Assembly (NCBI GenBank): GCA_019326865.1
Contig: GCA_019326865.1_4101.1
Direction: 5' to 3' (one strand)
Length of the DNA stretch: 64,000 nt
From: a phage
This document shows positions 8,731 through 62,905 of this stretch, piece by piece. Position 1 is the first letter of the stretch; each line of letters starts with the position of its first letter. A model generated the notes under the pieces. The model was not told where the DNA came from. It saw only the letters and a program-made list of their open reading frames with translations, and searched no databases. The position numbers and the translations under genes are program-made.

Positions 8731-8731
8731 G

Positions 8732-48089: not shown

Positions 48090-48162
48090 AATTTCTCTCC
48101 TTCATTCATTATACTGTATTTAACCCAATTAAGAAAAGCCAGTATCAAGTACTGGTATTTTA

Positions 48163-49512
48163 TTATTGTAATGGAATTTCAGTGAGTGTTTTATATGTAC
48201 TTCCGTTATACACCCCTCTCCAATATACTTTACCATCAGTACTAACCACTAATAATCCATATGTTGTAAACCCAAGAGTACCACCAACATACATAGCATC
48301 TTTGATTCTAATACCAATGTCTTCATATGTAAATGACGCGACTGCACCCGCTTGCCATGAAGGACTAGCGTAGTAATCACTATAAACACCATGTGCTTTA
48401 TATATTGATGTTGTTCCTGGTTCAAAAATTACAGTTCCACAGTAGTTCATTCGTATTTTAGTACTGGATGAAGTTGGTACATTTATACCTACGTCATCTT
48501 TTATCCCTGTGGTTAGGACGTTAAAACCACCCGCCACACGGTTGACGTCATTCGCACCGATTAAATACATACCAACGTTGTAGCCCATATAAAACACACT
48601 AGAGCTTCCATTCCAGAAAGAAAAACCACCACCATTCCCACAGCGATATAGTTGTGAATTTGAGCAGTACATCATACCTTCGTTTGTCGCATCAAATTCA
48701 TCTGCTTTTCCTATTGTAGCTACTGTAGTCCAAGTTTTAATTACTTGGTTTGTACTAGCTGGTGTTTGTATACCATATCGTATATTATACCCTTTACCGA
48801 CTATTGTACCATCTTCTAATTTGGCATAAAGTACAGGTCTATTACCAACAAAATACATATTATTGTGTGACATGTCTATTGTGCATCTTAATGAAACTAC
48901 TTTTTGTTTCAATTGATTATCTTTAGTAAAAGAAGTAAAGTAGTAATCTGATGTTGAGTTGTTTATTAAACCTTGTATTGACAACCCCATATACCAGATT
49001 TCTCCATTACTGTTCAATGCTGCCAAAATACAACTATATTTTGAAGTATATGCTGGGGTTACTGATGTTGCTGGTCCTTTATCATATCCACCACAGAATA
49101 CCATCTCCACAACTTCACCCACGTTAGCAAAATAAGAAGATACATTGATAAAACCATTTGTTATAAAAGGTGCTGTATTTATACTTGAATGTGTGAATAT
49201 CCCATTTGCATATACACCACAAAAATGATATGAACCATCATTATCTTGGACTATTATTCCATTTGATAGTAACCAAAAATTGTTTACATTTTTTCTTACT
49301 AATTCGATTCCTGCCCCATTAGTTGGCGTTATACCAAAAGAAACATATTTTGTTTGACCAATTCCATATAAATTTCCATTTGATGCTAATATTGCACCAA
49401 ACCAATTACCACCACCATTCTTGTTATGACCCATACCTATAGAATCAAATTTCTTAACAGTAGGAGCTTGTACTTTGTTCCCATAATTCACCATTCTTCC
49501 AAAAGGTAACAT
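48163..49512 (-). CDS. RCC1-like beta-propeller repeat protein, paralog 2
   Basis: N-terminus MLPFGRMVNYGN; G/S/T/N-rich repeats. Confidence 0.55.
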   Translation of the reverse strand: MLPFGRMVNYGNKVQAPTVKKFDSIGMGHNKNGGGNWFGAILASNGNLYGIGQTKYVSFGITPTNGAGIELVRKNVNNFWLLSNGIIVQDNDGSYHFCGVYANGIFTHSSINTAPFITNGFINVSSYFANVGEVVEMVFCGGYDKGPATSVTPAYTSKYSCILAALNSNGEIWYMGLSIQGLINNSTSDYYFTSFTKDNQLKQKVVSLRCTIDMSHNNMYFVGNRPVLYAKLEDGTIVGKGYNIRYGIQTPASTNQVIKTWTTVATIGKADEFDATNEGMMYCSNSQLYRCGNGGGFSFWNGSSSVFYMGYNVGMYLIGANDVNRVAGGFNVLTTGIKDDVGINVPTSSSTKIRMNYCGTVIFEPGTTSIYKAHGVYSDYYASPSWQAGAVASFTYEDIGIRIKDAMYVGGTLGFTTYGLLVVSTDGKVYWRGVYNGSTYKTLTEIPLQ

Positions 49513-49584
49513 ATTTCCCTCCTTTATTCATTATACTATATTTAATACTAAAAGAAAAAGCCAGTATCAAGTACTGGCATTATG

Positions 49585-50694
49585 TCATTTTGGTAAATTA
49601 ATTTTAGTAAAGGCTGCAACATCCTCGATTGCACCAGGAATTGCGTAATACGATCCAGTACTATATACATCTCCGTCTTTGGTTAATATTGATGTTAAAC
49701 CATCACTAAAAAGAACATCCCTAATCTCACTAACTTCAACGGGTAATTGTAAATTAGTAGCACTATATATTGCACCAGTTTGAGAATTGTTTAATCCCAA
49801 ACCACGGTTCGCCCCAACACCCTTCTGATATGTACTAGTAATTACCATTTGTGTAGCAGTATTTAAGGCAGGTGAATTCGTCATAAACAACGGTGAACTA
49901 TTAGGCAAAGTACTTGCAGGAACTGCACGAAATGTAGTTGTATCTGAACTAAGAAAGTTTGGCGTTTGACCACATACGAAATATGATGTACCATTATAGT
50001 AATTAAATGCATTACCACCAATGACTGCATCGATTACACCAGAGCTACGTAATCCCCACGTGTTAATTTGTGTTCGGTTCCCCGTGCCATGCTGACCCCT
50101 GTCATTCCACCCAGAACTATATAACTTATTATCTAATGTAATATACATACTGTCATTTGCATTCGTCATTACTTTACGCACATTAGTAGCACATTGAGTT
50201 AATGTGTAAATTGATGATGAACCAATACCTAAAGCACCACGATATCCATTAGCTCCTGCACCATAGAGTACTGAACTAGTGCTAAGTACAAATATTAAAC
50301 CATACGAACATACAATATTAGCAATTTCACTCACTGGTATAGCACTGGTAAACCAATTAGTTCTTTCAACTAATACTGTGCTGTAAGAAGTAGTTGTAGA
50401 CGATGTGAACCAATATGTTTCCCCTGATGTCCATATAGTATTATCATTTTTAATAATAACAAGTGCACGATCACCTACGAAAAAATTAGAAACATCTGCA
50501 CTTACTAATATCCATGAAGATACCGTGTTTTTATTACCATTTCCAGATTCACCACCTTGATTTCTACCTATGTAATATAAATCATGTGAATCAGTTAATA
50601 AGAATTGACCCTGTGTAGATGCACCAACTTTAATTATATTTTTAGGACCAGGTACAATATTCCCATAATCAAACATTCTTACAAAAGGTAACAT
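49585..50694 (-). CDS. RCC1-like beta-propeller repeat protein, paralog 3
   Basis: Start set to MLPFVRMFDYGN after SD GGAG; motifs YYIGRNQGGESGNG, YSSGWNDRGQHGTGN. Confidence 0.6.
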   Translation of the reverse strand: MLPFVRMFDYGNIVPGPKNIIKVGASTQGQFLLTDSHDLYYIGRNQGGESGNGNKNTVSSWILVSADVSNFFVGDRALVIIKNDNTIWTSGETYWFTSSTTTSYSTVLVERTNWFTSAIPVSEIANIVCSYGLIFVLSTSSVLYGAGANGYRGALGIGSSSIYTLTQCATNVRKVMTNANDSMYITLDNKLYSSGWNDRGQHGTGNRTQINTWGLRSSGVIDAVIGGNAFNYYNGTSYFVCGQTPNFLSSDTTTFRAVPASTLPNSSPLFMTNSPALNTATQMVITSTYQKGVGANRGLGLNNSQTGAIYSATNLQLPVEVSEIRDVLFSDGLTSILTKDGDVYSTGSYYAIPGAIEDVAAFTKINLPK

Positions 50695-50768
50695 AACTAA
50701 AATCTCCATATAATAATTATAATGTATTTACAAAAAAATACCAGTACGTATTTCAGTACTGGTATCAT

Positions 50769-51950
50769 TTATGGTAAAATGATAGATTGTAACGAACTCA
50801 TACCCAATGCTGGAACACTAGCCTGTGGTGCTGGAGAATTCAATTTTGGTGATGAAACCGCATATGACATTCCTGAACCCAAATCTGGATCAAAAACTAC
50901 AGCACAATAATTCCCACTATATATAAGTCCATTCTTGTATCCTTGTGCACTTTGAATGCATTTCGTGAACGTACCAATATCTGTCGTGGCATTTATTAAG
51001 TTCCTCCCACGATAACCGCAGGTGTATATGAAATTATCATCGCCTATGTACATACTAGAATCCCCAGAAGAACTACATAGATACGACATATAAGCACGCA
51101 TGTTTTTAGGAGCAACTGACAATGTACCTGCATAGAATTTATTATTCGAACCCGTAATATCACCATCACCCAATGCACCAAAACTTCCCCAGCCAGTACC
51201 GTAATATCTCTTATCACTCAAAAATATAATACAGTTGTTATTACACATCTTGATTTGATATATCAATGAAGGATCAACCCCAGGGAATGATTCAGTGAAT
51301 GTTAGAACAGCCGGATCAGTACTAGCATTACATTGATGATATGTATTAGTACCAGCGGACAAGATTGTTCCATTAGCTAACAGAATTCTCGCAGTACCAG
51401 TACCAGCAGTACAAGCAACTGCACTTCCTGCACTTCCGGTGTATATTTGTCTGAAAGTAAAGAAACCAACAGTTTTACTTCCCTGCCCACTCCAACCAGT
51501 ATTATCAACTCCACACGCCCATACTGAACCATCTTGCATGATCATCATTACACCAAAGCGTTCTATTGAAATATAAACAATCTTCGTTGTATCAACTGCA
51601 CTAAATCTAGAAGTTATATCAGTCCATACCTTAACACTTACCGCCGTCGCACTGGAAGTAGGATCTTCACCAGCTATCATTATCCTCCCATTGTTAGTAA
51701 GATACATTGTCTGACTATAACCAGTACTACAAAACTTAACACTATCAGTCTCTGGAACTTTTAACCACTCGTTGTAACGTGTTACGTTAGTGTTATTACC
51801 TAACTGATAATAGTTATTCATCCCAGATACATATAACACACCATCCTTTATTAAACTATAAGTCGCACTATAGTCACTACAGGTATAACGTGTACCCACA
51901 GGTCGCTCAACGACGTTCCCGTACTTAACCATTCTCCCAAAAGGTAACAT
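50769..51950 (-). CDS. RCC1-like beta-propeller repeat protein, paralog 4
   Basis: N-terminus MLPFGRMVKYGN; YVSGMNNYYQLGNNTN. Confidence 0.6.
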   Translation of the reverse strand: MLPFGRMVKYGNVVERPVGTRYTCSDYSATYSLIKDGVLYVSGMNNYYQLGNNTNVTRYNEWLKVPETDSVKFCSTGYSQTMYLTNNGRIMIAGEDPTSSATAVSVKVWTDITSRFSAVDTTKIVYISIERFGVMMIMQDGSVWACGVDNTGWSGQGSKTVGFFTFRQIYTGSAGSAVACTAGTGTARILLANGTILSAGTNTYHQCNASTDPAVLTFTESFPGVDPSLIYQIKMCNNNCIIFLSDKRYYGTGWGSFGALGDGDITGSNNKFYAGTLSVAPKNMRAYMSYLCSSSGDSSMYIGDDNFIYTCGYRGRNLINATTDIGTFTKCIQSAQGYKNGLIYSGNYCAVVFDPDLGSGMSYAVSSPKLNSPAPQASVPALGMSSLQSIILP

Positions 51951-52023
51951 ATTTTCCTCCTTTATTCATTATACTATATTTAATACAAAAAGAAATGCCA
52001 GTATCAAGTACTGGCATATTAAT

Positions 52024-53172
52024 TCATTGTATAAATGACATATCTACTTCTGTATAATTAAGAACGTTCTGTCCAGAAATACCACCCATTACTACTATTG
52101 CAAGGCCACAATAATATAATTTTCCAGTATCCGTAAGTATAAGTGATCCAGATGGACTGCGTACCAAATCACACGAACTATTAAAAGAAGTATAAGAAGG
52201 AGTATAGGAGTACTGATTATTATTATTACCAACACCTAATTGCCCAAACCCATTCGATCCAGAAGCATATAGAACTTCATCTGCTTTGACAATATGTGAT
52301 GCCATGTTACCAACACAAGTATATAGAGTATAAACTCCTGAACTCAATAATGTCGGAGTTTTATATTGTATATCTGTAGATGTAGAAGTACCACCTGTAC
52401 CAAATTCGTTCCCATATTGTGCACCGAACTGTTTACCACAAGCGTACAAATTATTATCCGATTTGATAAAAAATGTACTCTGATAACTTACATTAAAATC
52501 TATAACATCCGAAGAAATCATCGTCACCCCAGTAATAGAAGTTTGATTACCCGTGCCCAACTGGTAGTAATAGTTAAAACCACAACCCCATAAAGTATTA
52601 TCTTCTCGCAAATAAATGTTACCAACTGCCTTTTTAACCGAAGTTATAGTATCTACTCTTTTGAATGTGTTAAAAGAATTAATGTTTGTACCATCACCAA
52701 ATGATGATATGTTCGATATATTGTTAACTCCACAACAATACAATGTACCATCTTTTGTTATCAAATTCACCTTCATATCATAAAAACTACTCATGTATTT
52801 TATATCAGAAACATTAACACCACTTGATGTTATCCACGTAGTACAGTCCGTCCACAAAGTTTTTCTATCAGTTACACCAGTGAATGCCTTCGTGTTACCA
52901 GTGATAAAAACTTTTCCAGTACCTTTCTCTTCATACAATTGACAATCACTACTGTTATCTTCCAATAGAACTCGTTTAACATTCTCCGCACAAAGAATAA
53001 ATTTACTCGATGCTACACCTGTACCAGTACCCCAATTCGTCGCAGAAGATGCATACAACTTATCAGTATAAGTATCATGAAGATACATAGAATCACTGGA
53101 ATATATTTTAAAACGCCCTTCTTTCTCAGGTATAATATTCCCGTACTTAACCATTCTCCCAAAAGGTAACAT
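52024..53172 (-). CDS. RCC1-like beta-propeller repeat protein, paralog 5
   Basis: N-terminus MLPFGRMVKYGN; LWGCGFNYYYQLGTGNQTS, YASGSNGFGQLGVGNN. Confidence 0.65.
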   Translation of the reverse strand: MLPFGRMVKYGNIIPEKEGRFKIYSSDSMYLHDTYTDKLYASSATNWGTGTGVASSKFILCAENVKRVLLEDNSSDCQLYEEKGTGKVFITGNTKAFTGVTDRKTLWTDCTTWITSSGVNVSDIKYMSSFYDMKVNLITKDGTLYCCGVNNISNISSFGDGTNINSFNTFKRVDTITSVKKAVGNIYLREDNTLWGCGFNYYYQLGTGNQTSITGVTMISSDVIDFNVSYQSTFFIKSDNNLYACGKQFGAQYGNEFGTGGTSTSTDIQYKTPTLLSSGVYTLYTCVGNMASHIVKADEVLYASGSNGFGQLGVGNNNNQYSYTPSYTSFNSSCDLVRSPSGSLILTDTGKLYYCGLAIVVMGGISGQNVLNYTEVDMSFIQ

Positions 53173-53214
53173 ATCCCCTCCTTATTCATTATATCATATT
53201 TACCCAAAAAACAC

Positions 53215-53243
53215 TTGACACCCTTTCAGTACTGTTGTACGAT
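53215..53243 (+). promoter_or_regulatory. sigma70-type promoter for small-ORF array (diverges from RCC1 array)
   Basis: TTGACA-N17-TACGAT, spacer CCCTTTCAGTACTGTTG. Confidence 0.5.
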
Positions 53244-53268
53244 AGAAGGAATATTAGGAGAACTACAC

Positions 53269-53496
53269 ATGACAAATACCCTTAAGTACTACCTCAATAC
53301 TCTGCCCGACCTAGAGTACGGGAAGTTTCTCGCAGATAGTTCGTGGCTGATTGAGCTAAAAACACATAACAGCCCTGGATGCACCCTTATGATGAACAAT
53401 GCAATTGATACCCTTATAGTGAGTATTTTACATAGCAATATCTACGAGGATAACAATAAACAATTAACAAAAATCTTAGTACTGCTATCTCTATGA
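53269..53496 (+). CDS. micro-protein array member (75 aa)
   Basis: SD AGGAG before ATG 53269; KYYLNTLPD ... LVLLSL. Confidence 0.5.
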   Translation: MTNTLKYYLNTLPDLEYGKFLADSSWLIELKTHNSPGCTLMMNNAIDTLIVSILHSNIYEDNNKQLTKILVLLSL

Positions 53497-53705
53497 ACAC
53501 TATGAGCACTGAACAGTTCTACATCAATGCACTACCAACTAAAAGTCTTCAAGAAAGCTTACTGTATACACAAAAGAATTTTAAAAACTTCAAACGTTGC
53601 CCTAAACTACTGAACTCGTACAGGAATAATATTATAAGAAATGTTTTACAAGGAGAAGAAAGTATGCAATACTATCACATCCTTATCCTTATATTGGAGT
53701 ACTAA
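53493..53705 (+). CDS. micro-protein array member (70 aa)
   Basis: EQFYINALP ... ILILILEY; ATGA overlap. Confidence 0.5.
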   Translation: MNTMSTEQFYINALPTKSLQESLLYTQKNFKNFKRCPKLLNSYRNNIIRNVLQGEESMQYYHILILILEY

Positions 53706-53706
53706 T

Positions 53707-53916
53707 ATGAATACTGAACATAAAGAATTCTACACCAAATACCTCAGTAACGAAGAACAATTGTTTCTAAGAAGTGTATCACCTGTAAGTACCAATACTC
53801 AATTCGGTAGAGATTGCTTTAATAATTGTATACGTAGTACCCTAGAAGCTATCGAATACAATAACAAAAATATTATGTACTCAGGTTTAATAGGACTAAT
53901 ATTCTTCTATGAATAA
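53707..53916 (+). CDS. micro-protein array member (69 aa)
   Basis: MNTEHKEFYTKYL; TAAtATG junction. Confidence 0.55.
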   Translation: MNTEHKEFYTKYLSNEEQLFLRSVSPVSTNTQFGRDCFNNCIRSTLEAIEYNNKNIMYSGLIGLIFFYE

Positions 53917-54103
53917 TCATAAAGATTTCTATGGTAGTAAACTACACAAACATGAACAGCTATCATTCTCTTTAGCACCACCTATGAGAAAGGATAATCT
54001 ATATTATAATTACGATTTCAGGATGGCGACACGTTATGCAATAGAACATCAGTTCCCTGAAACTAAGTACCGCTCTATCCTGAACCTCATCTTTAAGTTC
54101 TAA
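53909..54103 (+). CDS. micro-protein array member (64 aa)
   Basis: MNNHKDFYGSKL ... LNLIFKF. Confidence 0.55.
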   Translation: MNNHKDFYGSKLHKHEQLSFSLAPPMRKDNLYYNYDFRMATRYAIEHQFPETKYRSILNLIFKF

Positions 54104-54150
54104 AAACCGCACCAGGGTCCGAGTACTTTAACATAGTAAGGCTAATTACA

Positions 54151-54336
54151 ATGAATCACATAAGCTACTACTACCAACAACTATCCGACAGAGACAAGTA
54201 CAGCCACAATTCCCATGTATGGTACTACAAACGCGGCAGTATAAGAGACAAACAACATTACTTCTGTATTTCTATTAAAGAAGCACTAACAACTAAGTAC
54301 ACGTACAGAGCAGTACTTAAACTAATCTCTATCTAA
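54151..54336 (+). CDS. micro-protein array member (61 aa)
   Basis: MNHISYYYQQL ... LKLISI. Confidence 0.5.
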   Translation: MNHISYYYQQLSDRDKYSHNSHVWYYKRGSIRDKQHYFCISIKEALTTKYTYRAVLKLISI

Positions 54337-54344
54337 GGAATACT

Positions 54345-54524
54345 ATGCAAGAATTCTATATAGAACATATAACCATAAAAGACCGTTTCATGTACGACAC
54401 CTTCGTGAAATACTACAAACTGGGAACAAAAAGTACTAAAAATATTAATCTCAATAGCTGCATACACCAAGCACTAACAAAAGATAATCCCTTCAGGGAA
54501 ATCCTCGCTCTCGCATCTGTATAA
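54345..54524 (+). CDS. micro-protein array member (59 aa)
   Basis: MQEFYIEHI ... ILALASV; below track cutoff. Confidence 0.45.
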   Translation: MQEFYIEHITIKDRFMYDTFVKYYKLGTKSTKNINLNSCIHQALTKDNPFREILALASV

Positions 54525-54534
54525 AGGAAACCAA

Positions 54535-55194
54535 ATGAAACTTAATCAACACAGCAAACAATACCTTAAACACTTTAAGTACCTCAACAGTATTCAAGCA
54601 GAATCTTTTACACCAGCATATACGTATCACCCAAATGTACTAAAGAAACGAAATAAAAAGAAAAAATCCAGAAATGTTCTCGTATCTAAGAACCTCAAAT
54701 CGTACTTGAAGAAAAATAATATAGCTCTTGCTTTTATTAATATCTATAATACTGATTTAAAAGTATTGAGTACTAATACCAGCACAAAAGCACTAAAGAA
54801 TGCATCTATCTATATACACATGGATAATATCCCGTGCACTATAATTCTATCTTCCGGGAATGTATACTTCTTCGGGAATTGTAATAGCACCCATGATATC
54901 AGTACTGCACAATTCCAAATCGGAGATATGTACTGCATGGGTTCAGAAAAAATACACGATAACATGCACTTCTTCCAAAAGCAACGTACTAACGAAACTG
55001 ATACAGTACTGCAATTCCTCAAAGAATTACAAAACAAAGAATTATCCGAGGAAGAAGAATTCATGTACAGTACTGTAATCGATAATCCAGGACTCTATAA
55101 AAACGCGTACAAACTAACAAAACATGTACAGGAACTTATCAGTACTGATAAGAAATTCCATCACCTCATTACGTATATTTCAAACTATGTATAA
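54535..55194 (+). CDS. hypothetical protein inside micro-protein array, C-terminal EEEFMYSTV motif
   Basis: 219 aa; basic N-terminal region. Confidence 0.5.
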   Translation: MKLNQHSKQYLKHFKYLNSIQAESFTPAYTYHPNVLKKRNKKKKSRNVLVSKNLKSYLKKNNIALAFINIYNTDLKVLSTNTSTKALKNASIYIHMDNIPCTIILSSGNVYFFGNCNSTHDISTAQFQIGDMYCMGSEKIHDNMHFFQKQRTNETDTVLQFLKELQNKELSEEEEFMYSTVIDNPGLYKNAYKLTKHVQELISTDKKFHHLITYISNYV

Positions 55195-55369
55195 AGAATT
55201 CTACAAAGATAAAATCCCAATGCATCTACAACACCATATACCAAACGTTGCATTGGGCATAAAAGATCACGCAAAGATAATGTTCCAACAATGTACTAAG
55301 TACACGCTCATATACGATGATAATCCATATATGCTGTACTACGTAGTAATGCTAACATTCAGGTACTAA
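55187..55369 (+). CDS. micro-protein array member (60 aa)
   Basis: MYKEFYKDKIP ... VMLTFRY; track start 55124 trimmed. Confidence 0.55.
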   Translation: MYKEFYKDKIPMHLQHHIPNVALGIKDHAKIMFQQCTKYTLIYDDNPYMLYYVVMLTFRY

Positions 55370-55370
55370 T

Positions 55371-55550
55371 ATGCACAAATATAAAGAATTCTACCTCTCG
55401 TACCTTAATTCCGATATAGTAACATCCAATACCTTCAGTACTAAAATTATCTATAATGAAGTAATGAAAGAATGTATTAAAGGTGCTATTAACCCTAAAG
55501 ATACGTATGACTTGTACTATGCAGTACTAACCCTTGTTTTCACGAAATAA
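55371..55550 (+). CDS. micro-protein array member (59 aa)
   Basis: MHKYKEFYLSYL ... LTLVFTK; TAAtATG junction. Confidence 0.5.
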   Translation: MHKYKEFYLSYLNSDIVTSNTFSTKIIYNEVMKECIKGAINPKDTYDLYYAVLTLVFTK

Positions 55551-55558
55551 CACATAAT

Positions 55559-55747
55559 ATGAATAACCACAAAGAATACTACATACAATTTCTCCCCAGT
55601 ATTTTTGAACACTACGCCAGATATAAAGTCCCCCTGGATAACGATTTGGCAGTACTGGGATTCAATCACTGCATAGAACGAAGTATAGAAAATAGTAATA
55701 GCTATGAACAATTATATAACACTATCCTACTTATATTCAGGTACTAA
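55559..55747 (+). CDS. micro-protein array member (62 aa)
   Basis: MNNHKEYYIQFLP ... LLIFRY. Confidence 0.55.
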   Translation: MNNHKEYYIQFLPSIFEHYARYKVPLDNDLAVLGFNHCIERSIENSNSYEQLYNTILLIFRY

Positions 55748-55748
55748 T

Positions 55749-55937
55749 ATGCACAAAGAATACTACGCAAAATATTTCCCAATGTATCTCAGAACTAATC
55801 TATTAGATAAACCTCGCGATATCAATGCACAAAACGATAAAGTGTACTTTATTATGTGCACTAAAGCATGTATACTAGATCATGACAGCTACCATCGAGT
55901 ACTGTATCATACACTGTACCTAGCTTTCGTATTCTAA
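55749..55937 (+). CDS. micro-protein array member (62 aa)
   Basis: MHKEYYAKYFP ... LYLAFVF; TAAtATG junction. Confidence 0.55.
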   Translation: MHKEYYAKYFPMYLRTNLLDKPRDINAQNDKVYFIMCTKACILDHDSYHRVLYHTLYLAFVF

Positions 55938-55946
55938 GAGAACAAT

Positions 55947-56132
55947 ATGCATAAAGAATTCTACTTAAGCCATCTGGATCTAAACTCCCAAATGCTTATA
56001 CCACTAATCCCAATAGATATCAAGGATAAGAAAAATACCGAACAATTCATTTACCATACACAGTGTGCGATCACCCCAAATTACATTCCATATGAATTGT
56101 ACTACATTCTCGCCCTAATATATAGGTACTAA
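55947..56132 (+). CDS. micro-protein array member (61 aa)
   Basis: MHKEFYLSHL ... LALIYRY. Confidence 0.55.
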   Translation: MHKEFYLSHLDLNSQMLIPLIPIDIKDKKNTEQFIYHTQCAITPNYIPYELYYILALIYRY

Positions 56133-56133
56133 T

Positions 56134-56319
56134 ATGCATAGAGAATACTACACACAATTTGTTAAAGGGAACTACAAACATGCCGTACCCAGAACCCCTT
56201 TAAATTCTCATGACCCAAGTACTATATTCCTGTTTAATGACGCAATACGTACAGTACTCAATACTAAAGATGAACAAGTGCAGTACGTATTCTTACTTTT
56301 ACTTATATACAGACACTAA
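56134..56319 (+). CDS. micro-protein array member (61 aa)
   Basis: MHREYYTQFV ... LLLLIYRH; TAAtATG junction. Confidence 0.55.
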   Translation: MHREYYTQFVKGNYKHAVPRTPLNSHDPSTIFLFNDAIRTVLNTKDEQVQYVFLLLLIYRH

Positions 56320-56342
56320 CTAATATACAGACACTAACTAAT

Positions 56343-56525
56343 ATGAATAAAGAACATAAAGACTTCTACATAAGAAAACTAACATTCGTCCCCGTAAGAA
56401 TATACAAAGAATGCGACCCAAGATTATACCTATGGCACTTCAATGAGTGCATAAAAGATTCTATATACCCTAAGAACTATAAAGAACAATTGTGCTCAGT
56501 ACTAACACTAGTACTATCATATTAA
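56343..56525 (+). CDS. micro-protein array member (60 aa)
   Basis: MNKEHKDFYIRKL ... LTLVLSY; preceded by 18-bp tandem duplication. Confidence 0.55.
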   Translation: MNKEHKDFYIRKLTFVPVRIYKECDPRLYLWHFNECIKDSIYPKNYKEQLCSVLTLVLSY

Positions 56526-56538
56526 TAGAGATAATACT

Positions 56539-56730
56539 ATGTATAAAGAGTACTATATAAGTAAACTCAAAGAGAATGAACAAGCATGGATTAAATCTAT
56601 AATAGCACTTGCATTTAATAGATATGCATTTAACAGATGCACAGAGATTGCTATAGAACCTTGTCCTATTAAAGAGAAGGCACAGTACAATCAGTACTAC
56701 TATATGTTAATGCTTATATATAGAAAGTAA
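56539..56730 (+). CDS. micro-protein array member (63 aa)
   Basis: MYKEYYISKL ... MLMLIYRK. Confidence 0.55.
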   Translation: MYKEYYISKLKENEQAWIKSIIALAFNRYAFNRCTEIAIEPCPIKEKAQYNQYYYMLMLIYRK

Positions 56731-57124
56731 TTCAACATAGAGACAGGGGAAGCTCCGCAGGGTAAGCATTGGACAGGCTTTAACATATGTTATATATGTT
56801 AAAATTCAGCCTGGACAAATGCGATCACTAGGATTCTCCCCAGGCTAAACCCCGTAATCATATATAAACATTTAAGTAATCATTTATAATCATTGTGGTG
56901 ATCAGTAGTGATTAGTATTGAGTACTAGAGTGTAATAGAGTACAGGAATGTGCACGTTTAATCAAGAACGTAGCAGTACTGATATGCCACTAAGTAGGCA
57001 GAGGAAGTCTGCCGTACTTTGTAGTTTCCAAGCTCCTTTTCCATTTTGCAAATTACATCAAATGTAATCAAAAGTAATCACGTAATGATTAGTACTGAAA
57101 TATTAGTTTCATCTTTTTTCAAAT

Positions 57125-57200
57125 ACCTTTTTACCCTTCGGGATAAATGTATTTTTATCCATTTACCTTTGGGGTAAAATCCCATTACCCCTTGAGGCTC
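57125..57200. repeat. three degenerate ~15-bp direct repeats
   Basis: TACCCTTCGGGATA / TACCTTTGGGGTAA / TACCCCTTGAGGCT in ORF-free DNA. Confidence 0.5.
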
Positions 57201-57386
57201 CAGCAAAAAGTTGGAAAGTACTCCATCGTAAATATGGATCGTAAAAATTTTGGAGTACCTATGAAATAAAAGTTGGATCTTCGAAAGTTGAAATTTACGT
57301 TGGGACATTGATGTTTTTTGGGATATAATGAGTTTTGTAGTGATGAAGTTTGTACGATTACAGTACTGAATAATGAAAGAAAGCTA

Positions 57387-57414
57387 TTGACATTATGATT
57401 CAGTACTGTATAAT
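57387..57414 (+). promoter_or_regulatory. sigma70-type promoter, family A, with no ORF downstream
   Basis: TTGACA-N16-TGTATAAT with TTCAGTACTG spacer; nearest downstream ORF of 60 aa or more is 1.3 kb away. Confidence 0.5.
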
Positions 57415-57785
57415 GTTCTACATAGAGAGATGAGTTGCCGCAAACAATTCATTCACTCTACCTCCTGTCGTGAGACAGTACAGAAAAGATAGTTCCTCCT
57501 ATGCGTGGTACATCTTTTTATAACCTCTTTTTTCGTAATATAAACAGTACTGGTATTAACAGAATGGTATCAGTACTGACTTTAATCTAATACATTATGC
57601 CACCAGCACAAGCTGGTGGATTCCCTCTAACAGTATTCAGTACTACATGATAGTCTTCATCCTCCTAGGGTAACATAGTGAGGGCTATTGTGGGAGTACT
57701 GAATACTCCTTTCAAAAGATAGAATAATGGTATAGTACCGACGGATTTTGGGCGTAGTTACCCTGGGTGGATTTTGGACGTAGAT

Positions 57786-57932
57786 ATGTCTAGCCCTCCA
57801 GAAGTCTGGAAGTAAAGATGGCTATCCATCTAGACGGCTAAACGGATAGATTTCTAGATGGCTGTATGGCTAGACGTTTGGATGGCTAAACGGCTAGATG
57901 GTTACACGTCTGGAAGTATAGACGGCTAAATC
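57786..57932. repeat. iteron-like cluster of short direct repeats
   Basis: GGCTAAACGG x2, GTCTGGAAGTA x2, GATGGCT x3, TAGACGG x2, TAGATGG x2 within ~150 bp. Confidence 0.55.
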
Positions 57933-58619
57933 AAAATTTTTATTTTGTTTTTCCAATAGTTCCCCTACCGCGTGAGGATATTTTTCCCCGCAGTATCTGG
58001 AGTTAGATTTTTCTGAATCTGGAATCATTATCTAATAAACTGGGGGCAATGTCAACCGCCTGGATGAATATTTTTAAAAATAATCTAGTACTGAATTTTG
58101 GGCGTAACTATGCACCCGGTGGGCTTGAGTCTTTCTCGACTTGATGAAACTATTATACAGTACTAGAAAAATAAAGCAATACCCTAAACGCAAAAAATTT
58201 AATTAATTTGCTTGCTATCCTGGGCCGTACTATGGTACTATTAGTTCAGTACTGAGAAAGTGCTTTAACCTGCTAGGGTGCGGGAGTGTATCCTTTTTAA
58301 ATTATATGAATTTTGGACGCAATCCCGCACCCTGTGGGTTAGTGCCTTGTGTCCGGCTTATGTAGTAATTATACGCTTTTTCAGTACTGAGTCAATAGCT
58401 AAAAACAAAAATAATTGAAAATAATTTAACGCGTTTAAACGGCCCGTAAAGCCCTGGAGTGATTGGAATGGTACAAATGTATAGCTTAGGTGTATTAATG
58501 CGTTAGAATGCGTCTGAGGCCGTTTTACGGGGTGTAGTGGTGATTTGGTTGATTCAGTACTGAATGATAGTATTCCTATATAGAAAGAAAACTATTTTAA
58601 AAGTACATGTAGAAAGTAC

Positions 58620-58647
58620 TTGCAAAGTATTGGGAAAGGTGTAGAAT
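58620..58647 (+). promoter_or_regulatory. promoter, family B (TTGCAA-N16-TAGAAT) + 5' hairpin
   Basis: Followed by TTTTACATCGAG and hairpin AGCGGGAA-CAC-TTCCCGCT (58661-58679). Confidence 0.55.
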
Positions 58648-58702
58648 GTTTTACATCGAGAGCGGGAACACTTCCCGCTGCACATAAAGAGAGATTAAAA
58701 CG

Positions 58703-59065
58703 ATGGCTACTCAAATCAATAAAATTATTGCTAACCTGGTTAACTTCCGCGACGAGATGAAAGGTCTTCCGGCTGAAACGGTAAAAATTCACATTTCAGC
58801 TTATCGGGAACTTATTGCAATGTTACCGCTTAAGCGTGAACAATACGCCGCTACCGTGATGCTTGATGCGATGATCCATGAGATGATCGCCAGTGATTTA
58901 ACGATGGTTTATCAGTACATGGGCGAAAATTTCGCGGTGTCTGGTAAGCCAGTACCAGGGATGGCAACTACTGAGGAATTGCACGGTTTAAATTTAAAAC
59001 AAGATGCATGGGATAATATGCCTCGTTTCCTGGTATGGGCTGACAGTGGCAAAATTTACAAATAA
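58703..59065 (+). CDS. hypothetical protein
   Basis: 120 aa; higher-GC codon usage typical of the 58.6-64 kb block. Confidence 0.55.
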   Translation: MATQINKIIANLVNFRDEMKGLPAETVKIHISAYRELIAMLPLKREQYAATVMLDAMIHEMIASDLTMVYQYMGENFAVSGKPVPGMATTEELHGLNLKQDAWDNMPRFLVWADSGKIYK

Positions 59066-59079
59066 GTTTAATAAAGTAC

Positions 59080-59107
59080 TTGCATACTAAGTTAAAACAA
59101 GTATAAT
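59080..59107 (+). promoter_or_regulatory. promoter, family B (TTGCAT-N16-TATAAT) + 5' hairpins
   Basis: Followed by hairpins GGGAAGTTT/AAACTTCCC and AGGGGAA-TAG-TTCCCC. Confidence 0.55.
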
Positions 59108-59186
59108 ACTTTCTATCAGGTGCAACGGGAAGTTTTTAAACTTCCCTATAGGGGAATAGTTCCCCACTATATAAGAGGATTAAAAA

Positions 59187-59426
59187 ATGGCTAAATCAAA
59201 AATGTTCTTAGGTCACAAAAACAAAACTCATTGGAATGTAAGCCTTTGGATTAATAACGATGAGTCATTGTACCGGTTGGCCCAGGACTTTATTGCCGCC
59301 AACACTAATCGCAATGATGCGGCCCGTCATATGATGTTATTTTTAGAACAGACTGGACAAGATAAAACACCGGACGGATTCAAATATAGCACTACTGCGA
59401 TCCGTGCGGCGATGGTTGGAATGTAA
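59187..59426 (+). CDS. hypothetical protein, 79-aa paralog A
   Basis: SD AGAGGAT; KNKTHWNVSLWINNDESLYR ... PDGFKYSTTAIRAAMVGM; paralog of 61223 ORF. Confidence 0.6.
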   Translation: MAKSKMFLGHKNKTHWNVSLWINNDESLYRLAQDFIAANTNRNDAARHMMLFLEQTGQDKTPDGFKYSTTAIRAAMVGM

Positions 59427-59511
59427 TAGAATTTATTTAAAGTACTATCGCAAAAAATGATAGTACTTTATAATAGTGTTTTATTCATACACCAACGATA
59501 AGGGCAACAGC

Positions 59512-59778
59512 ATGAATATTAAGTATTTTGCGACGCGTGAACAAGCTCGGAAGGCGGCGAAAGTGGAAGGTGCAACGTTTAAAGATATGGGCATACAATC
59601 GGAACGTGGTAAACGTTGGGCCATTGTAAAGCGTAGTACAGCCAGATCATTACAGTACTGGTTATCAGCTTTAAAAAGTCCTGATAGTGTATCGCGTCGA
59701 GTGGTAGAAATAAAGCTCGACCGTAAGGGGAATCGTGTTACCGTGTACCGTACTAAAAAGATTGCAGTACTTGAATAA
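59512..59778 (+). CDS. hypothetical basic protein
   Basis: Track ORF 59476..59778 trimmed to ATG 59512. Confidence 0.45.
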   Translation: MNIKYFATREQARKAAKVEGATFKDMGIQSERGKRWAIVKRSTARSLQYWLSALKSPDSVSRRVVEIKLDRKGNRVTVYRTKKIAVLE

Positions 59779-59784
59779 AAGTAC

Positions 59785-59812
59785 TTGCAAAGTAAGTTAA
59801 AAGGCGTATAAT
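59785..59812 (+). promoter_or_regulatory. promoter, family B (TTGCAA-N16-TATAAT) + 5' hairpin
   Basis: Hairpin GTGGGGAA-TAC-TTCCCCAC at 59825-59843. Confidence 0.55.
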
Positions 59813-59862
59813 ACTTTCTATCAGGTGGGGAATACTTCCCCACTACATAAGAGGATTTAAAA

Positions 59863-60093
59863 ATGGCTACCATGTACATGACCGAAGTTAAAACCGTAAA
59901 AGATACTACCACAAATAAAACTACTTACTTACAGCGGATCTGTGGTGTATGGCAACGTATTAGTAAAGTAAAGTACTTTAAATTAACATCATATGCCAAT
60001 CGTTCGGATTCATTCAGTACTGAAATAAAAGGTAATAAAGTACACCAATACGGCACTTATTATTATTATAGCCTGGACGCGATTGCAGTATAA
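59863..60093 (+). CDS. hypothetical protein
   Basis: 76 aa; SD GAGGAT. Confidence 0.5.
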   Translation: MATMYMTEVKTVKDTTTNKTTYLQRICGVWQRISKVKYFKLTSYANRSDSFSTEIKGNKVHQYGTYYYYSLDAIAV

Positions 60094-60340
60094 GCAGTTT
60101 ACAAATCTTTACAATTGCCGGTATTGACTTAAAATGTCAGTACTGGCATAATGTATCTATTGAAACGAACAATTTGGCCCACGGGGTGCGGGAGTGTATC
60201 TATAGAAAAAGTAGTTTAGTACAGTTACAATTGTGCACCCGGTGGGTTAGCTGTTGTCATGGGGTATATTATGCCAGTACTTGATAATGCTGTCAATACC
60301 TTTTTACTATTCAGTACTGAAAACTATTTGATAAAAAGTA

Positions 60341-60368
60341 CTTGCAAACTATGTTTAAAGGCGTATAA
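60341..60368 (+). promoter_or_regulatory. promoter, family B (TTGCAA-N16-TATAAT) + 5' hairpin
   Basis: Followed by TTTTACATCAGG and imperfect hairpin ACGGGGAAC...CTTCCCGT; no ORF before next promoter. Confidence 0.5.
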
Positions 60369-60458
60369 TGTTTTACATCAGGACGGGGAACGAAATAAGT
60401 AACTTCCCGTTAAGTAGCCCAGGAGTAAGGCATACGAAAAACTCCCCTGATAAAATAG

Positions 60459-60487
60459 TTTGACAATTGTTTTTAAAAGCGTATAAT
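60459..60487 (+). promoter_or_regulatory. sigma70-type promoter (TTGACA-N17-TATAAT)
   Basis: Upstream of ORF 60520. Confidence 0.5.
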
Positions 60488-60519
60488 ACTTACATCAACT
60501 ACTTAATGAGGGTTACAAA

Positions 60520-61131
60520 ATGAAAACTATCACTACTACTACTTATGTTATGGATTTTTCTGAATTAAACGCAGAACAAAAAACGTCAGCTATCGAACTG
60601 GTTCGGGAACGTGAAAAAAACTTAAACGACGATTATTTTTCTGAAAGTGAAATTGAATACTATAAAGAAACAGTACTACCGGAATATGGCATTAATGAAG
60701 CTGAAATACAATTCAGTGGTTTTTGGTCGCAGGGTGACGGTGCATCAATTAGTACTGACCACGTTGACGCAGTGAAGTTTTTACGTAAGGTAAGAGCATT
60801 AACTAAGTATCGCTCAATCCGTCACCTGCTGAATGAAGATGATTTGGCGATGAGTGTAAAGCGTTCTCACTCCCGCTACTCACATGAGAACACTGTAAGC
60901 GGGTACATTGAATCGGCTTACACTGATTTAACCGCAAAACAAGAAACGTTAGTTAATGGGCTTGAGGAACTGCTCACTGATACTATTCGTGAATTGTCAC
61001 GCAAGTTATACCGTGATTTAGAGAATGCATATGAGGATCAATTCACTACTGAAAACATCGTATCACTGATTGAGGGTAACGAATATCAATTCAATGTTAT
61101 TGATGGCGTAGTAGAATCAATTGCATATTAA
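60520..61131 (+). CDS. hypothetical protein
   Basis: 203 aa; SD GAGGGT. Confidence 0.55.
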   Translation: MKTITTTTYVMDFSELNAEQKTSAIELVREREKNLNDDYFSESEIEYYKETVLPEYGINEAEIQFSGFWSQGDGASISTDHVDAVKFLRKVRALTKYRSIRHLLNEDDLAMSVKRSHSRYSHENTVSGYIESAYTDLTAKQETLVNGLEELLTDTIRELSRKLYRDLENAYEDQFTTENIVSLIEGNEYQFNVIDGVVESIAY

Positions 61132-61138
61132 AAAGTAC

Positions 61139-61166
61139 TTGCAAACTAAGTTTAAAAGCGTATAAT
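61139..61166 (+). promoter_or_regulatory. promoter, family B (TTGCAA-N16-TATAAT) + 5' hairpin
   Basis: Hairpin GCGGGGGAA-TGG-TTCCCCTGC at 61180-61200. Confidence 0.55.
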
Positions 61167-61222
61167 ACTTTATATCGAGGCGGGGGAATGGTTCCCCTGC
61201 TCAAACAAACGAGGATTTAAAA

Positions 61223-61462
61223 ATGGCTAGTACTAAAACTTACAACGGACACAAAAACAAAACTCATTGGAATGTTTCATTGTGGATTAATAACGATGAA
61301 TCATTATACCGGATTGCTCAAAATTGCATCGCTCAAAGTAAAACGAAAGATATTGCAGCGGAATTTATGTACCGCAGATTAAAAGCCAACGGTACTACTA
61401 CAACGCCGGACGGATTCAAGTATAGCACTACGGCGATCCGTGCTGCAATGGTTGGAATGTAA
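61223..61462 (+). CDS. hypothetical protein, 79-aa paralog B
   Basis: SD GAGGAT; same KNKTHWNVSLWINNDESLYR and PDGFKYSTTAIRAAMVGM blocks as 59187 ORF. Confidence 0.6.
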   Translation: MASTKTYNGHKNKTHWNVSLWINNDESLYRIAQNCIAQSKTKDIAAEFMYRRLKANGTTTTPDGFKYSTTAIRAAMVGM

Positions 61463-61518
61463 CATTCAGTACTGAATCAATGGCGGGTGTGGTTCCCGCC
61501 TTTACTGAGGATTATCTA

Positions 61519-61800
61519 ATGAGTAAAGTAATTAACTATACAGTACTAAGCAAGTCATTATCTATTAGCCAGTGCACCGATGGTTTTTGGCTGTACGATG
61601 AAACGCGTGGCATGAATTTAGCTATGCAGGAGAAAACTGCTGATGCGGCATATCTTAAAGCACTGGAATACTACCAGAAGCGTTTAACGGAAGTAGAAAA
61701 CGATTATAATAACCTTAAAGCGAAAGTGGATAATTTCGTTGGTCAATTCGTTGACGATGACGAGGGGCACTACTGCGACCGTTGTGGATCTTACAGTTAA
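61519..61800 (+). CDS. hypothetical protein
   Basis: SD GAGGAT before ATG 61519; track start 61480 rejected. Confidence 0.45.
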   Translation: MSKVINYTVLSKSLSISQCTDGFWLYDETRGMNLAMQEKTADAAYLKALEYYQKRLTEVENDYNNLKAKVDNFVGQFVDDDEGHYCDRCGSYS

Positions 61801-61817
61801 GTACTAAGGATTATATA

Positions 61818-62021
61818 ATGAGTGATTTAATTGAACGTATCAAAGAGCTTGAAGAAAAAGAATTGCAGTTGATCGGTTTACAGAATAAAATCTATCATGA
61901 TTTGGGGAGTTTTATCAATGCGTGGGATAATGGCGATCCTGATGCGTTACCTGCTAACCGCCAGGCAATGATCAATGATGTGCGTGGTGTCTTTGAGTAT
62001 GTTTTAAAGCAATTAAATTAA
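61818..62021 (+). CDS. hypothetical protein
   Basis: SD AAGGAT before ATG 61818. Confidence 0.45.
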   Translation: MSDLIERIKELEEKELQLIGLQNKIYHDLGSFINAWDNGDPDALPANRQAMINDVRGVFEYVLKQLN

Positions 62022-62031
62022 AAAAAAGTAC

Positions 62032-62059
62032 TTGCAATTAGTTTTTAGTACTGTATAAT
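62032..62059 (+). promoter_or_regulatory. promoter, family B (TTGCAA-N16-TGTATAAT) + 5' hairpin
   Basis: Hairpin AGGGGAGAA-ATG-GTTCTCCCT at 62070-62090. Confidence 0.55.
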
Positions 62060-62109
62060 GTTTTACATAGAGGGGAGAAATGGTTCTCCCTGGTAATGAG
62101 GAAAATACA

Positions 62110-62331
62110 ATGGCTAATATCACTACTCTTTCTCAACTGGAAGCACTGGTTAAATCTATGCGGGAACATGCCGACAAAATCGGCGTAAAAGATCCAGCCG
62201 TTTGCTTCTGCGACGAAATGAATGATGATACATTGGTAATAGCAGAAGTTCAGGACGTTTCTAACTATTCATCGCGTTACACTGGCGGCGTAGCAAATAA
62301 AGGTGACTTCTGTTTATACCTTACCAAATAA
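62110..62331 (+). CDS. hypothetical protein
   Basis: SD GAGGAAAA before ATG 62110; first ATG lies inside 5' hairpin and was rejected. Confidence 0.5.
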   Translation: MANITTLSQLEALVKSMREHADKIGVKDPAVCFCDEMNDDTLVIAEVQDVSNYSSRYTGGVANKGDFCLYLTK

Positions 62332-62336
62332 CAACG

Positions 62337-62366
62337 CGGGGAGATAATAACTCCCCGTTACTTTTT
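62337..62366 (+). terminator. rho-independent terminator
   Basis: CGGGGAG-ATAATAA-CTCCCCG followed by T-run. Confidence 0.55.
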
Positions 62367-62499
62367 CAGTACTGAATAATTTAATAGACGGATCTATGCA
62401 CCCAGTGGGTTAGTGACTGTTTCGTCTTTATGTAGTAATTATGCCAGTACTGGATGCACTTGTCAACAACTATTTTTCAAATACTTTTTATTAAAATAC

Positions 62500-62527
62500 T
62501 TGCAATTAGTTTTTAAACGCGTATAAT
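62500..62527 (+). promoter_or_regulatory. promoter, family B (TTGCAA-N16-TATAAT) + 5' hairpin
   Basis: Hairpin GGGGGAGCGGTTCCCC at 62538-62553. Confidence 0.55.
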
Positions 62528-62574
62528 GTTTTGCATAGGGGGAGCGGTTCCCCTGGTAACTAAGGAATAAGAAA

Positions 62575-62811: not shown

Positions 62812-62828
62812 AAGTACTTGATAATAGT

Positions 62829-62856: not shown

Positions 62857-62905
62857 AGATACATAAGGGGCGAATAGTTTGCCCCTAGTACAAAGGGGAA
62901 ACATT

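Follow-up and report, generated by a model that had tools for sequence, protein, structure and literature searches.

We analyzed a 64,000-nucleotide (nt) stretch of phage DNA (GenBank assembly GCA_019326865.1, contig GCA_019326865.1_4101.1; hereafter the window) for the nature of a run of small open reading frames (ORFs) at 53269-56730 on its plus strand. When ORF starts were set at the ATG matching the family start, the run resolved into 14 consecutive plus-strand ORFs of 59-75 amino acids (aa), here numbered m01 to m14, just as a first-pass annotation of this DNA had described. We find that this array is an uncharacterized case of a lineage-specific tandem expansion in a jumbo phage, of which the genes themselves have already been deposited. 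The source phage is an Asteriusvirus jumbo coliphage of the 121Q/PBECO4/UE-S1 group. A megablast search with positions 53000-57000 matched 36 records, all of them jumbo Escherichia or Salmonella phages of about 310-385 kilobases (kb), at 80-98% identity and with none identical. The records fetched in detail, including 121Q, PBECO4, SP27, UE-S1, and phAPEC6, were all classified as Asteriusvirus or, in the case of fEgEco12, close to it; the T4-type context against which the array had originally been set is therefore the wrong one. Lysogeny or plasmid carriage was also checked, and neither complete E. coli genomes nor plasmids contained a match to the window sequence.

The array lies at a strand switch, where a minus-strand run of RCC1-like genes stops at 53172 and the plus-strand small ORFs begin 96 nt further on. 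The RCC1-like gene that borders it (52024-53172, minus strand) has Pfam RCC1 and RCC1_2 matches, and the whole RCC1-like beta-propeller run comprises at least four genes (46947-53172, minus strand). We confirmed both the divergence of the array from this bordering gene and the promoter-like site between them (53215-53243), which is kept in nine phages. In the feature list below, E-values (E) come from leave-one-out profile hidden Markov models (HMMs) or from matches to PHROG profiles, among them phrog_11711, as which the core family already exists in databases. The ratio of nonsynonymous to synonymous substitution rates (dN/dS) was obtained from pooled pairwise Nei-Gojobori comparisons of each window member with its orthologues, which is a coarse test. 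SD denotes the Shine-Dalgarno site, dG its free energy, and pI the isoelectric point.

53215-53243 (+), sigma-70-like promoter: TTGACA-N6-CAGTACTG-TTG-TACGAT with a 17-nt spacer, matching 10 of 12 consensus positions; followed by AGGAG and then by the ATG of m01
53269-53496 (+), m01: 75 aa; first ORF of the operon; strong SD (AGGAG; SD dG -7.3); leave-one-out E 3.4; orthologue dN/dS 0.34; membership not demonstrated
53493-53705 (+), m02: 70 aa; start overlaps the m01 stop (ATGA); no SD; leave-one-out E 0.45; weak, distant member
53707-53916 (+), m03: 69 aa; TAC-TAA-T-ATG junction; leave-one-out E 9.5e-11; phrog_11711 E 9.4e-13; firm member
53909-54103 (+), m04: 64 aa; 8-nt overlap with m03; leave-one-out E 2.8e-6; phrog_11711 match; firm member
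54151-54336 (+), m05: 61 aa; divergent subfamily, homologous to m06; leave-one-out E 0.07; dN/dS 0.14
54345-54524 (+), m06: 59 aa; divergent, links m05 to the core; leave-one-out E 1.1e-3; no phrog_11711 match
54535-55194 (+), 219-aa ORF: between m06 and m07; phrog_29152 E 1.9e-112; basic, pI 9.4; dN/dS 0.41
55187-55369 (+), m07: 60 aa; 8-nt overlap with the 219-aa ORF; no SD; leave-one-out E 7.8e-11; phrog_11711 E 2.6e-22; firm member
55371-55550 (+), m08: 59 aa; TAA-T-ATG junction; leave-one-out E 1.3e-9; phrog_11711 match; firm member
55559-55747 (+), m09: 62 aa; structure modeled; no SD; leave-one-out E 6e-14; firm member
55749-55937 (+), m10: 62 aa; TAA-T-ATG junction; leave-one-out E 6.8e-6; phrog_11711 match; firm member
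55947-56132 (+), m11: 61 aa; leave-one-out E 5.6e-10; phrog_11711 E 8.4e-12; firm member
56134-56319 (+), m12: 61 aa; TAA-T-ATG junction; leave-one-out E 6e-9; phrog_11711 E 2.9e-9; firm member
56343-56525 (+), m13: 60 aa; no SD; leave-one-out E 5.3e-9; firm member
56539-56730 (+), m14: 63 aa; last gene of the array; leave-one-out E 3e-11; phrog_11711 E 2.7e-20; firm member
56746-56842 (+), strong RNA hairpin directly 3' of the last stop: minimum free energy -39.2 kcal/mol, z = -3.6, none of 200 shuffles folding as well; no U-tract

To establish which of these ORFs form one family, we compared their products with each other and with external profiles. Mean pairwise identity among the 14 products is 21% (range 8-39%). 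Leave-one-out profile HMMs recovered m03, m04, and m07-m14 at E = 7e-6 to 6e-14, and the same 10 of 14 matched the independent external profile phrog_11711 (PHROGs v4, function unknown, 62 positions) over their full length at E 3e-9 to 4.4e-26, while m01, m02, m05, and m06 gave no match to it at E <= 0.1. When orthologue alignments were compared by hhalign, the alignment of m02 with the core was full-length (E 1.3e-3), and m05 aligned both with the core (E 2.6e-3) and with m06 (E 5e-7, probability 92%). The product of m01 aligned with the core over its first 15 residues only (E 0.13) and weakly with m02 (E 7.6e-3). The proposed 14-member family thus holds for ten firm members (m03, m04, and m07-m14) and extends to three weak or distant ones (m02, m05, and m06), but m01 is unproven. 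The sequence motifs first put forward for the family are likewise real but less general than described. The start motif M(N/H/Y)KE(F/Y)Y is exact in four members, m12 (MHREYY) is one residue off, and five more carry a K-E/D-F/Y-Y core after 2-4 extra residues. The central motif xxC(I/T)x occurs in eight members and the C-terminal ending (I/F)(Y/F)R(Y/H/K) in five, neither being present in all 14. A search of the other 60 kb of the window with the family HMM, in all frames, found no further copy.

The single larger ORF inside the array (54535-55194) was confirmed to be unrelated, with an hhalign probability to the family of 0.1%. The same value led us to reject the idea, suggested by its N- and C-terminal sequences, that it is a family member carrying an insertion. 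This ORF has a lysine-rich stretch (KKRNKKKKSR) and occupies the same place within the array in all ten phages compared. Its homologues are genus-restricted, its AlphaFold2 model is poor (predicted local distance difference test, pLDDT, 43), and a PDB sequence search with its profile returned nothing meaningful. For the homologues P0057, P0066, P0071, and P0074, several NCBI records call the contigs (126-359 kb) 'Escherichia coli'; it is evident that jumbo-phage genomes were assembled here in the course of bacterial sequencing projects.

The genes of the array are tightly packed. In order, the junction spacers (n = 14) are -4, +1, -8, +47, +8, +10, -8, +1, +8, +1, +9, +1, +23, and +13 nt, so that 12 of 14 junctions measure 13 nt or less and three are overlaps. 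The junction TAC-TAA-T-ATG, said to recur at many places, does exist in this exact form, but at only 4 of 14 junctions. SD complementarity is strong only for m01, m03, m06, and the 219-aa ORF, reaches a moderate level behind upstream genes with the ending ...AGG-TAC-TAA, and is lacking for m02, m07, m09, and m13, of which two overlap the gene before them. Because three starts overlap the preceding gene, four lie 1 nt after a stop, and four genes have no SD complementarity, translational coupling across the array is plausible. The hairpin at 56746-56842 may mark the 3' end of the operon or stabilize the transcript; since it lacks a U-tract, it is not a canonical intrinsic terminator. We also observed a strongly negative GC skew (-0.22) across the plus-strand array (52000-56000), whereas the skew is positive in the window's other plus-strand gene regions. 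This is probably due to the composition of the proteins, whose genes use many Tyr, Asn, His, and Thr codons and few GNN codons.

Upstream of the array, the promoter is well conserved: in nine phages the -35 element is invariant, the CAGTACTG palindrome in the spacer is nearly invariant, the -10 element reads TAC(T/A/G)AT, and the AAGGAG site is invariant. On the other side of the strand switch, the intergenic stretch 53173-53214, read on the minus strand as ATATGATATAATGAATAAGGAGG, is also conserved in nine phages and lies upstream of the RCC1-like gene. Within it, TGATATAAT (minus strand) resembles an extended -10 element near the Shine-Dalgarno site of that gene, with no obvious -35 element, and may be a divergent promoter of the RCC1-like gene, possibly of the late or middle class.

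The palindrome in the array promoter recurs elsewhere, and this promoter is a variant of a wider class. Near-consensus sigma-70 hexamers in the arrangement TTGAC(A/T)-N8-CAGTACTG-(0-1 nt)-TATAAT occur at seven other positions of the window:

6671-6700 (+), promoter of the CAGTACTG class
22269-22296 (+), promoter of the CAGTACTG class
36079-36106 (+), promoter of the CAGTACTG class
57387-57414 (+), promoter of the CAGTACTG class
60124-60153 (+), promoter of the CAGTACTG class
62829-62856 (+), promoter of the CAGTACTG class
62466-62437 (-), promoter of the CAGTACTG class

The combination TTGACA-N4-10-CAGTACTG was found 5 times, against 0.01 expected. Promoters of this class are probably the early promoters of the phage, and the palindrome possibly gives them a built-in operator. 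Our literature search found nothing on the CAGTACTG motif. In the related phage CBB, short hypothetical ORFs that its authors take as early host-takeover genes share a region with a concentration of RpoD-like promoters (PMC5259590).

To see whether the ORFs behave as genes, we compared the locus across ten phages, including the window phage. Separate, intact small ORFs were present in all ten, with order and frame kept, and in none of them did we see the region read as one frameshifted larger gene. Orthologue dN/dS of the array members ranges from 0.14 to 0.55, with a pooled value of 0.35, and the neighboring genes range from 0.07 to 0.58. As the array members lie within or slightly above the range of their neighbors, the ORFs encode real, constrained proteins, with orthologues under purifying to relaxed selection. 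Across 524 orthologue pairs placed on common family coordinates, dN/dS fell to its minimum of 0.22-0.36 at the conserved motifs and peaked at 0.54-0.61 in helix 2, with its loop, of the fold described below. The family had been called diversifying, a description that is not supported by these orthologue values, no region exceeding 0.61. Instead, the pooled dN/dS of 0.35 suggests that the diversity reflects old divergence of paralogues together with gene gain and loss, and not a detectable, ongoing positive selection.

The family is confined to the genus Asteriusvirus. A word-indexed search of 5.8 billion proteins returned 33 matches, each of them closely related to members in the window itself. 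From 1.84 billion representatives at 50% identity, searched exhaustively with HMMER, came 28 matches, all of 57-69 aa except for one spurious, repetitive protein of 3829 aa. For the 22 representatives that were new relative to the first search, the best match was in every case to array members of the ten compared phages, at 85% identity or more in 15 out of 22 instances. With two of the weakest-scoring representatives, tblastn found matches only in Asteriusvirus phages, such as JNE01, Turkey5, A4, and CMSTMSU. The same genes are listed as 'hypothetical protein' gp249-gp265 in 121Q, with equivalents in PBECO4, SP27, phAPEC6, UE-S1, and others, and the array is annotated ORF by ORF in 121Q, A4, SP27, and fEgEco12. 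Deposited array ORFs carry the label 'hypothetical protein' in over 30 genomes, and databases list them only as unannotated singletons. Our literature search found no paper on the array as a tandem family, its copy-number variation, its promoter, or its fold.

Running the family HMM over the homologous locus in the ten phages showed that copy number differs between them, as follows:

14 members: the window phage, UE-S1, and JNE01
15 members: A4
16 members: 121Q
17 members: PBECO4
19 members: SP27, CMSTMSU, and fEgEco12
21 members: BF17

In all ten phages the members lie at one locus, on one strand, split by an ORF of about 220 aa. Clustering at 55% identity gave 41 orthologue groups with a conserved order. 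With groups given as letters and the split between the two blocks as a slash, the window reads A B C D E F / G H I J K L M N and SP27 reads A B C D E P f P o F / G H O I J K L M N. The window's gene set (A-N, without O, P, Q, f, and o) is unlike that of all nine other phages compared. At the junction between H and I in the window, the upstream side is identical to the H-O junction of UE-S1 and the downstream side follows the O-I junction of UE-S1. The switch between these two types lies in the 29-nt stretch TAATATGAATAACCACAAAGAATACTACA, which is identical at the starts of O and I, and the breakpoint relative to UE-S1 maps to 55555-55585, which covers the first ~27 nt of m09 and 4 nt upstream of its start codon. 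A switch inside an identical 29-nt 5' gene end is a signature of unequal homologous recombination. A second indel, relative to SP27, likewise falls at gene boundaries, and a smaller duplication is found at the junction of m12 and m13:

56306-56341 (+), 18-nt tandem duplication (TATACAGACACTAACTAA, two copies): spans the m12 stop and the m12/m13 junction; single copy in 121Q by direct comparison

These comparisons indicate that the array evolves by birth and death of genes and not by concerted evolution. Whole units appear to be gained and lost through unequal homologous recombination between the near-identical 5' ends of neighboring genes, as shown for one breakpoint. The array thus has two properties of an accordion-type multigene family of a large DNA virus, namely tandem paralogues that vary in number among close relatives and the gain or loss of units by recombination between homologous units.

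We then examined what kind of protein the family encodes. AlphaFold2 modeled m09, from a 19-sequence family alignment, at a mean pLDDT of 91.7 with four helices (residues 3-9, 14-20, 29-44, and 48-60), and the conserved motifs K-E-F/Y-Y, F-N-x-C-I, and L-x-L-I-F/Y-R-Y fall in helices 1, 3, and 4 of this model. The family fold is therefore confidently predicted to be a four-helix bundle, for which we found no informative structural match. The members are tyrosine-rich (5-15%), and their grand average of hydropathy runs from -0.83 to +0.07, being negative in 13 out of 14. Their pI spans 5.3-9.6, with nine of the 14 basic and five acidic or near-neutral (pI 5.3-6.2), and the surfaces of the paralogues are not conserved among members. 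Judged without a dedicated transmembrane predictor, no member has a hydrophobic stretch of transmembrane length (at least ~18 residues). The hydrophobic C-terminal stretch, or 'tail', measures ~10-12 residues and packs as helix 4 of the modeled bundle and is not a membrane anchor. By their mostly negative hydropathy the proteins are soluble, and they do not fit the class of membrane or secreted micro-proteins. Compared with Pfam and NCBIfam, all 14 members gave sub-threshold noise only, with no helix-turn-helix (HTH) or other DNA-binding family, and a PDB sequence search with the family profile returned nothing meaningful. A PADLOC scan of seven members and the 219-aa ORF gave noise below threshold, which is a weak test given that PADLOC covers defense and not anti-defense proteins. 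Overall, the array proteins matched no characterized family, fold, or host-defense antagonist.

We tentatively propose that the array is an early, non-structural, accordion-like multigene family of small four-helix binder proteins. The structural and evolutionary part of this proposal we hold with considerable confidence; its functional part, that the proteins are binders serving host takeover or anti-defense, is possible but open to real doubt. Under this proposal, the host sigma-70 RNA polymerase would probably transcribe the array early from the promoter at 53215-53243. Translation would probably start at the strong Shine-Dalgarno site of m01 and then proceed from gene to gene, with termination-reinitiation at the overlaps, at the 1-nt spacers, and at genes without a Shine-Dalgarno site of their own. 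Each paralogue keeps one hydrophobic scaffold, built from an N-terminal helix with K-E-F/Y-Y, a central helix with F-N-x-C-I, and a hydrophobic C-terminal helix, and the paralogues differ chiefly in helix 2, the loops, and net charge (pI 5.3-9.6). Proteins that combine such a constant scaffold with variability in helix 2, loops, and charge, and that are produced as infection begins, would fit a repertoire of binders. The products would then probably act as non-structural intracellular proteins, each engaging a different host, host-defense, or competitor protein, and we consider a host-takeover or anti-defense repertoire to be their most plausible role.

Several points weigh against this proposal. 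The -10 element of the array promoter in the window is weak (TACGAT), and the promoter scan as a whole, internal promoters included, returned no more sites than shuffled sequence; the early timing therefore rests on conservation and analogy. Our literature search found no Asteriusvirus transcriptome. An arms-race arsenal might show positive selection, but no gene or protein region comes near a dN/dS of 1 in our coarse pairwise test (maximum by region 0.61). Finally, the absence of a ~7-kDa protein from virion mass spectrometry is weak negative evidence.

Two alternative explanations would tie the array to the virion or to its neighbors. The internal proteins (IP) encoded at the hyperplastic IP locus of T4-type phages are late, packaged proteins that share only a cleavable targeting peptide, and the N-terminal motif of the array is reminiscent of the T4 capsid-targeting sequence MKTYQEFIAE. 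The array proteins could accordingly be packaged and ejected internal proteins, in which the N-terminal motif is a capsid-targeting signal and the variable remainder is anti-restriction cargo injected with the DNA. Both systems are variable tandem sets of small proteins with a common short N-terminal motif (here M-x-K-E-F/Y-Y), the copy number of the array varies, and the array adjoins genes of virion-associated RCC1-like proteins. Conservation nevertheless extends beyond the N-terminus to the central motif and the C-terminal helix, with the whole chain folding as one confident bundle, and the 14 sequences have no consistent (L/I)-x-E protease site after the K-E-F/Y-Y motif. Moreover, the promoter is sigma-70-like and not of the T4-type late form TATAAATA, and the array is transcribed divergently from the virion genes. 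In the virion proteome of phAPEC6, the RCC1-like 'DNA condensation' proteins gp003-010, gp549, and gp551 are present, and a protein as small as 4.7 kDa was detected, but no array protein was (PMC7247149). We therefore regard the internal-protein explanation as quite improbable. The virion association of these phAPEC6 counterparts hints at a structural or DNA-organizing role for the RCC1-like proteins (PMC7247149). An earlier suggestion made the small proteins partner modules of these propellers; as adaptors, each would pair with one propeller. In favor of this, the array adjoins and diverges from a multi-copy RCC1-like array, and both families are expanded in this genus (PMC7247149). The explanation is not supported and is very improbable: phAPEC6 virions contain the propellers but none of the small proteins was detected in them, a different timing is suggested by the type of promoter, and the propeller gene that borders the array varies among phages (for example, between PBECO4 and the window). 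In addition, tblastn found RCC1-like genes in Eneladusvirus (fHe-Yen9-04) and Mimasvirus (GAP32), where the fetched flanks contain no ~60-aa array, the small-protein family being found only in Asteriusvirus.

The remaining alternatives accept the products as non-structural or question whether they are functional at all. The proteins could be small DNA-binding regulators or nucleoid-type proteins that act on phage or host DNA, possibly by binding the AGTACT/CAGTACTG palindrome. The palindrome is a spacer element both of the array promoter and of seven or more consensus promoters, AGTACT is about 8-fold over-represented and preferentially conserved, and helical proteins of ~60 aa, nine out of 14 of them basic, have the size of Cro-type repressors. 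On the other hand, a single palindrome does not need 14-21 different binders, no member matches an HTH or other DNA-binding family in Pfam or NCBIfam, five members are acidic or near-neutral, and the surfaces differ among paralogues, which makes this explanation improbable. Only slightly less doubtful, and still unlikely, is a role as weapons or immunity factors in competition between phages, through superinfection exclusion or interference with co-infecting phages or satellites and not through manipulation of the host. The features of the array, with its early-type promoter, its non-structural products, a copy number that varies, and its restriction to one genus, fit this equally well, and nothing in our data separates host from phage targets; it has no positive evidence, however, and the array proteins are soluble, whereas characterized superinfection-exclusion proteins, such as T4 Imm and Sp, are usually membrane proteins. 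That the ORFs are not functional genes, but chance ORFs of AT-rich sequence or decaying duplicates, might be thought from their very small size, their lack of known homologues, and the failure of 4 out of 14 in the family tests. This is close to refuted by ORFs that stay intact, with order and frame unchanged, across ten phages whose DNA is 80-98% identical, the dN/dS of 0.14-0.55 for every member (m01, at 0.34, included), the confident fold prediction, and the conserved promoter and Shine-Dalgarno site.

The proposed repertoire of binders has counterparts in several known systems. In poxviruses, amplification of K3L has reportedly been described as a 'genomic accordion' (Elde et al., 2012), and African swine fever virus carries the multigene families MGF110, MGF360, and MGF505. 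The array resembles these in its tandem paralogues, in a copy number that differs among close relatives, and in the gain and loss of units by recombination between repeats. It has no sequence or fold relation to them, and it differs in that its paralogues are old (~21% identity) and its orthologues conserved, which points to long-term birth and death rather than to rapid recent amplification. Accordion-like gene-family dynamics are a recognized route of adaptation to host defenses in large DNA viruses, and a parallel to large phages has been drawn (PMC13359090). The SPO1 host-takeover module (PMC6873191) and the CBB_390-546 region of CBB (PMC5259590) are similar to the array as runs of very small, uncharacterized ORFs behind host-sigma-type promoters that are presumed to be early, CBB being a relative in the same Rak2-like group for which the authors infer early takeover. 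These clusters consist mostly of unrelated genes, in contrast to the 10-20 paralogues of one fold in the array. The multiplication of a small domain in a single jumbo-phage lineage is also seen for the zinc-ribbon of Bacillus phage G (~35 copies; PMC7824862) and for the RCC1-like proteins of phAPEC6 (11 proteins; PMC7247149); the array differs from both in that its fold is distinct and without recognizable relatives, and in that its copies are strictly tandem in one operon. From these parallels we speculate, while considering it unlikely, that the array is a phage counterpart of the poxvirus and African swine fever virus families. In that case, 14-21 early variants of a new four-helix scaffold would each neutralize a different host defense or hub protein and would be reshuffled by recombination at gene ends, tuning host range in E. 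coli and Salmonella. The family or the embedded basic 219-aa protein might also work through the AGTACT/CAGTACTG motif that marks early-type promoters.

With the array comes a compact group of 14-21 related micro-proteins that lend themselves to experiment and are probably produced right at the onset of infection. Their common fold is confidently predicted and matches nothing known, and natural gain and loss variants exist across over 30 sequenced phages. In jumbo phages, which are candidates for therapy, genes of unknown function make up more than 80% of the total. If the proteins are takeover or anti-defense binders, the array would provide a panel of small inhibitors of E. coli proteins and a clear prokaryotic case of an accordion-style multigene family. 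If they are not binders, the array remains a record of copy-number change in a phage operon through recombination at conserved gene ends. The AGTACT motif, the CAGTACTG promoter class, and a conserved 2-kb gene-free stretch next to the array may prove to tell at least as much about the regulation of these phages.

This gene-free stretch (56731-58702) occupies the ~2 kb after the array. Although it lacks a conserved ORF, its identity across nine relatives is 80-87%; its counterpart is unannotated in 121Q, A4, SP27, PBECO4, and BF17. It contains the perfect TTGACA-16-TATAAT promoter at 57387-57414, many TTCAGTACTGA palindromes, GAATTTTGGGCGTA repeats at 57743, 57769, 58093, and 58307, and a hairpin flanked by CAGTACTG at 57545-57578. 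Within the same stretch, at 57818-57929, we observed a short-period degenerate repeat of GGCTA/GACGG/GATGG units, with copies 8, 16, and 24 nt apart, which resembles an iteron or protein-binding array. An Rfam search of 56731-58702 gave no match. The stretch may encode non-coding RNAs or may be a replication or regulatory region.

Across the window, AGTACT occurs 184 times in 64 kb against ~22 expected (~8-fold) and is densest at 54000-63000; there are 48 occurrences of CAGTACTG and 7 of TTCAGTACTGAA. When the window was aligned to five relatives, 82-92% of AGTACT sites proved to be conserved, compared with 54-68% of hexamers overall and 55-75% of those matched in base composition. As this conservation exceeds that of the control hexamers, the motif itself seems to be under selection in both coding and non-coding DNA, and it is possibly a binding site or a modification site. 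In the seven-tRNA cluster at 4194-9119, ARAGORN called a tRNA-Ser with anticodon ACT (7192-7283, plus strand). A serine anticodon with A34 is unusual, and this gene may be a mis-call or a modified tRNA. Finally, GCGC is absent from the 64 kb, against ~51 occurrences expected from base composition, and GATC, TCGA, and CTAG each occur at about half of the expected frequency, a pattern that looks like restriction-site avoidance.

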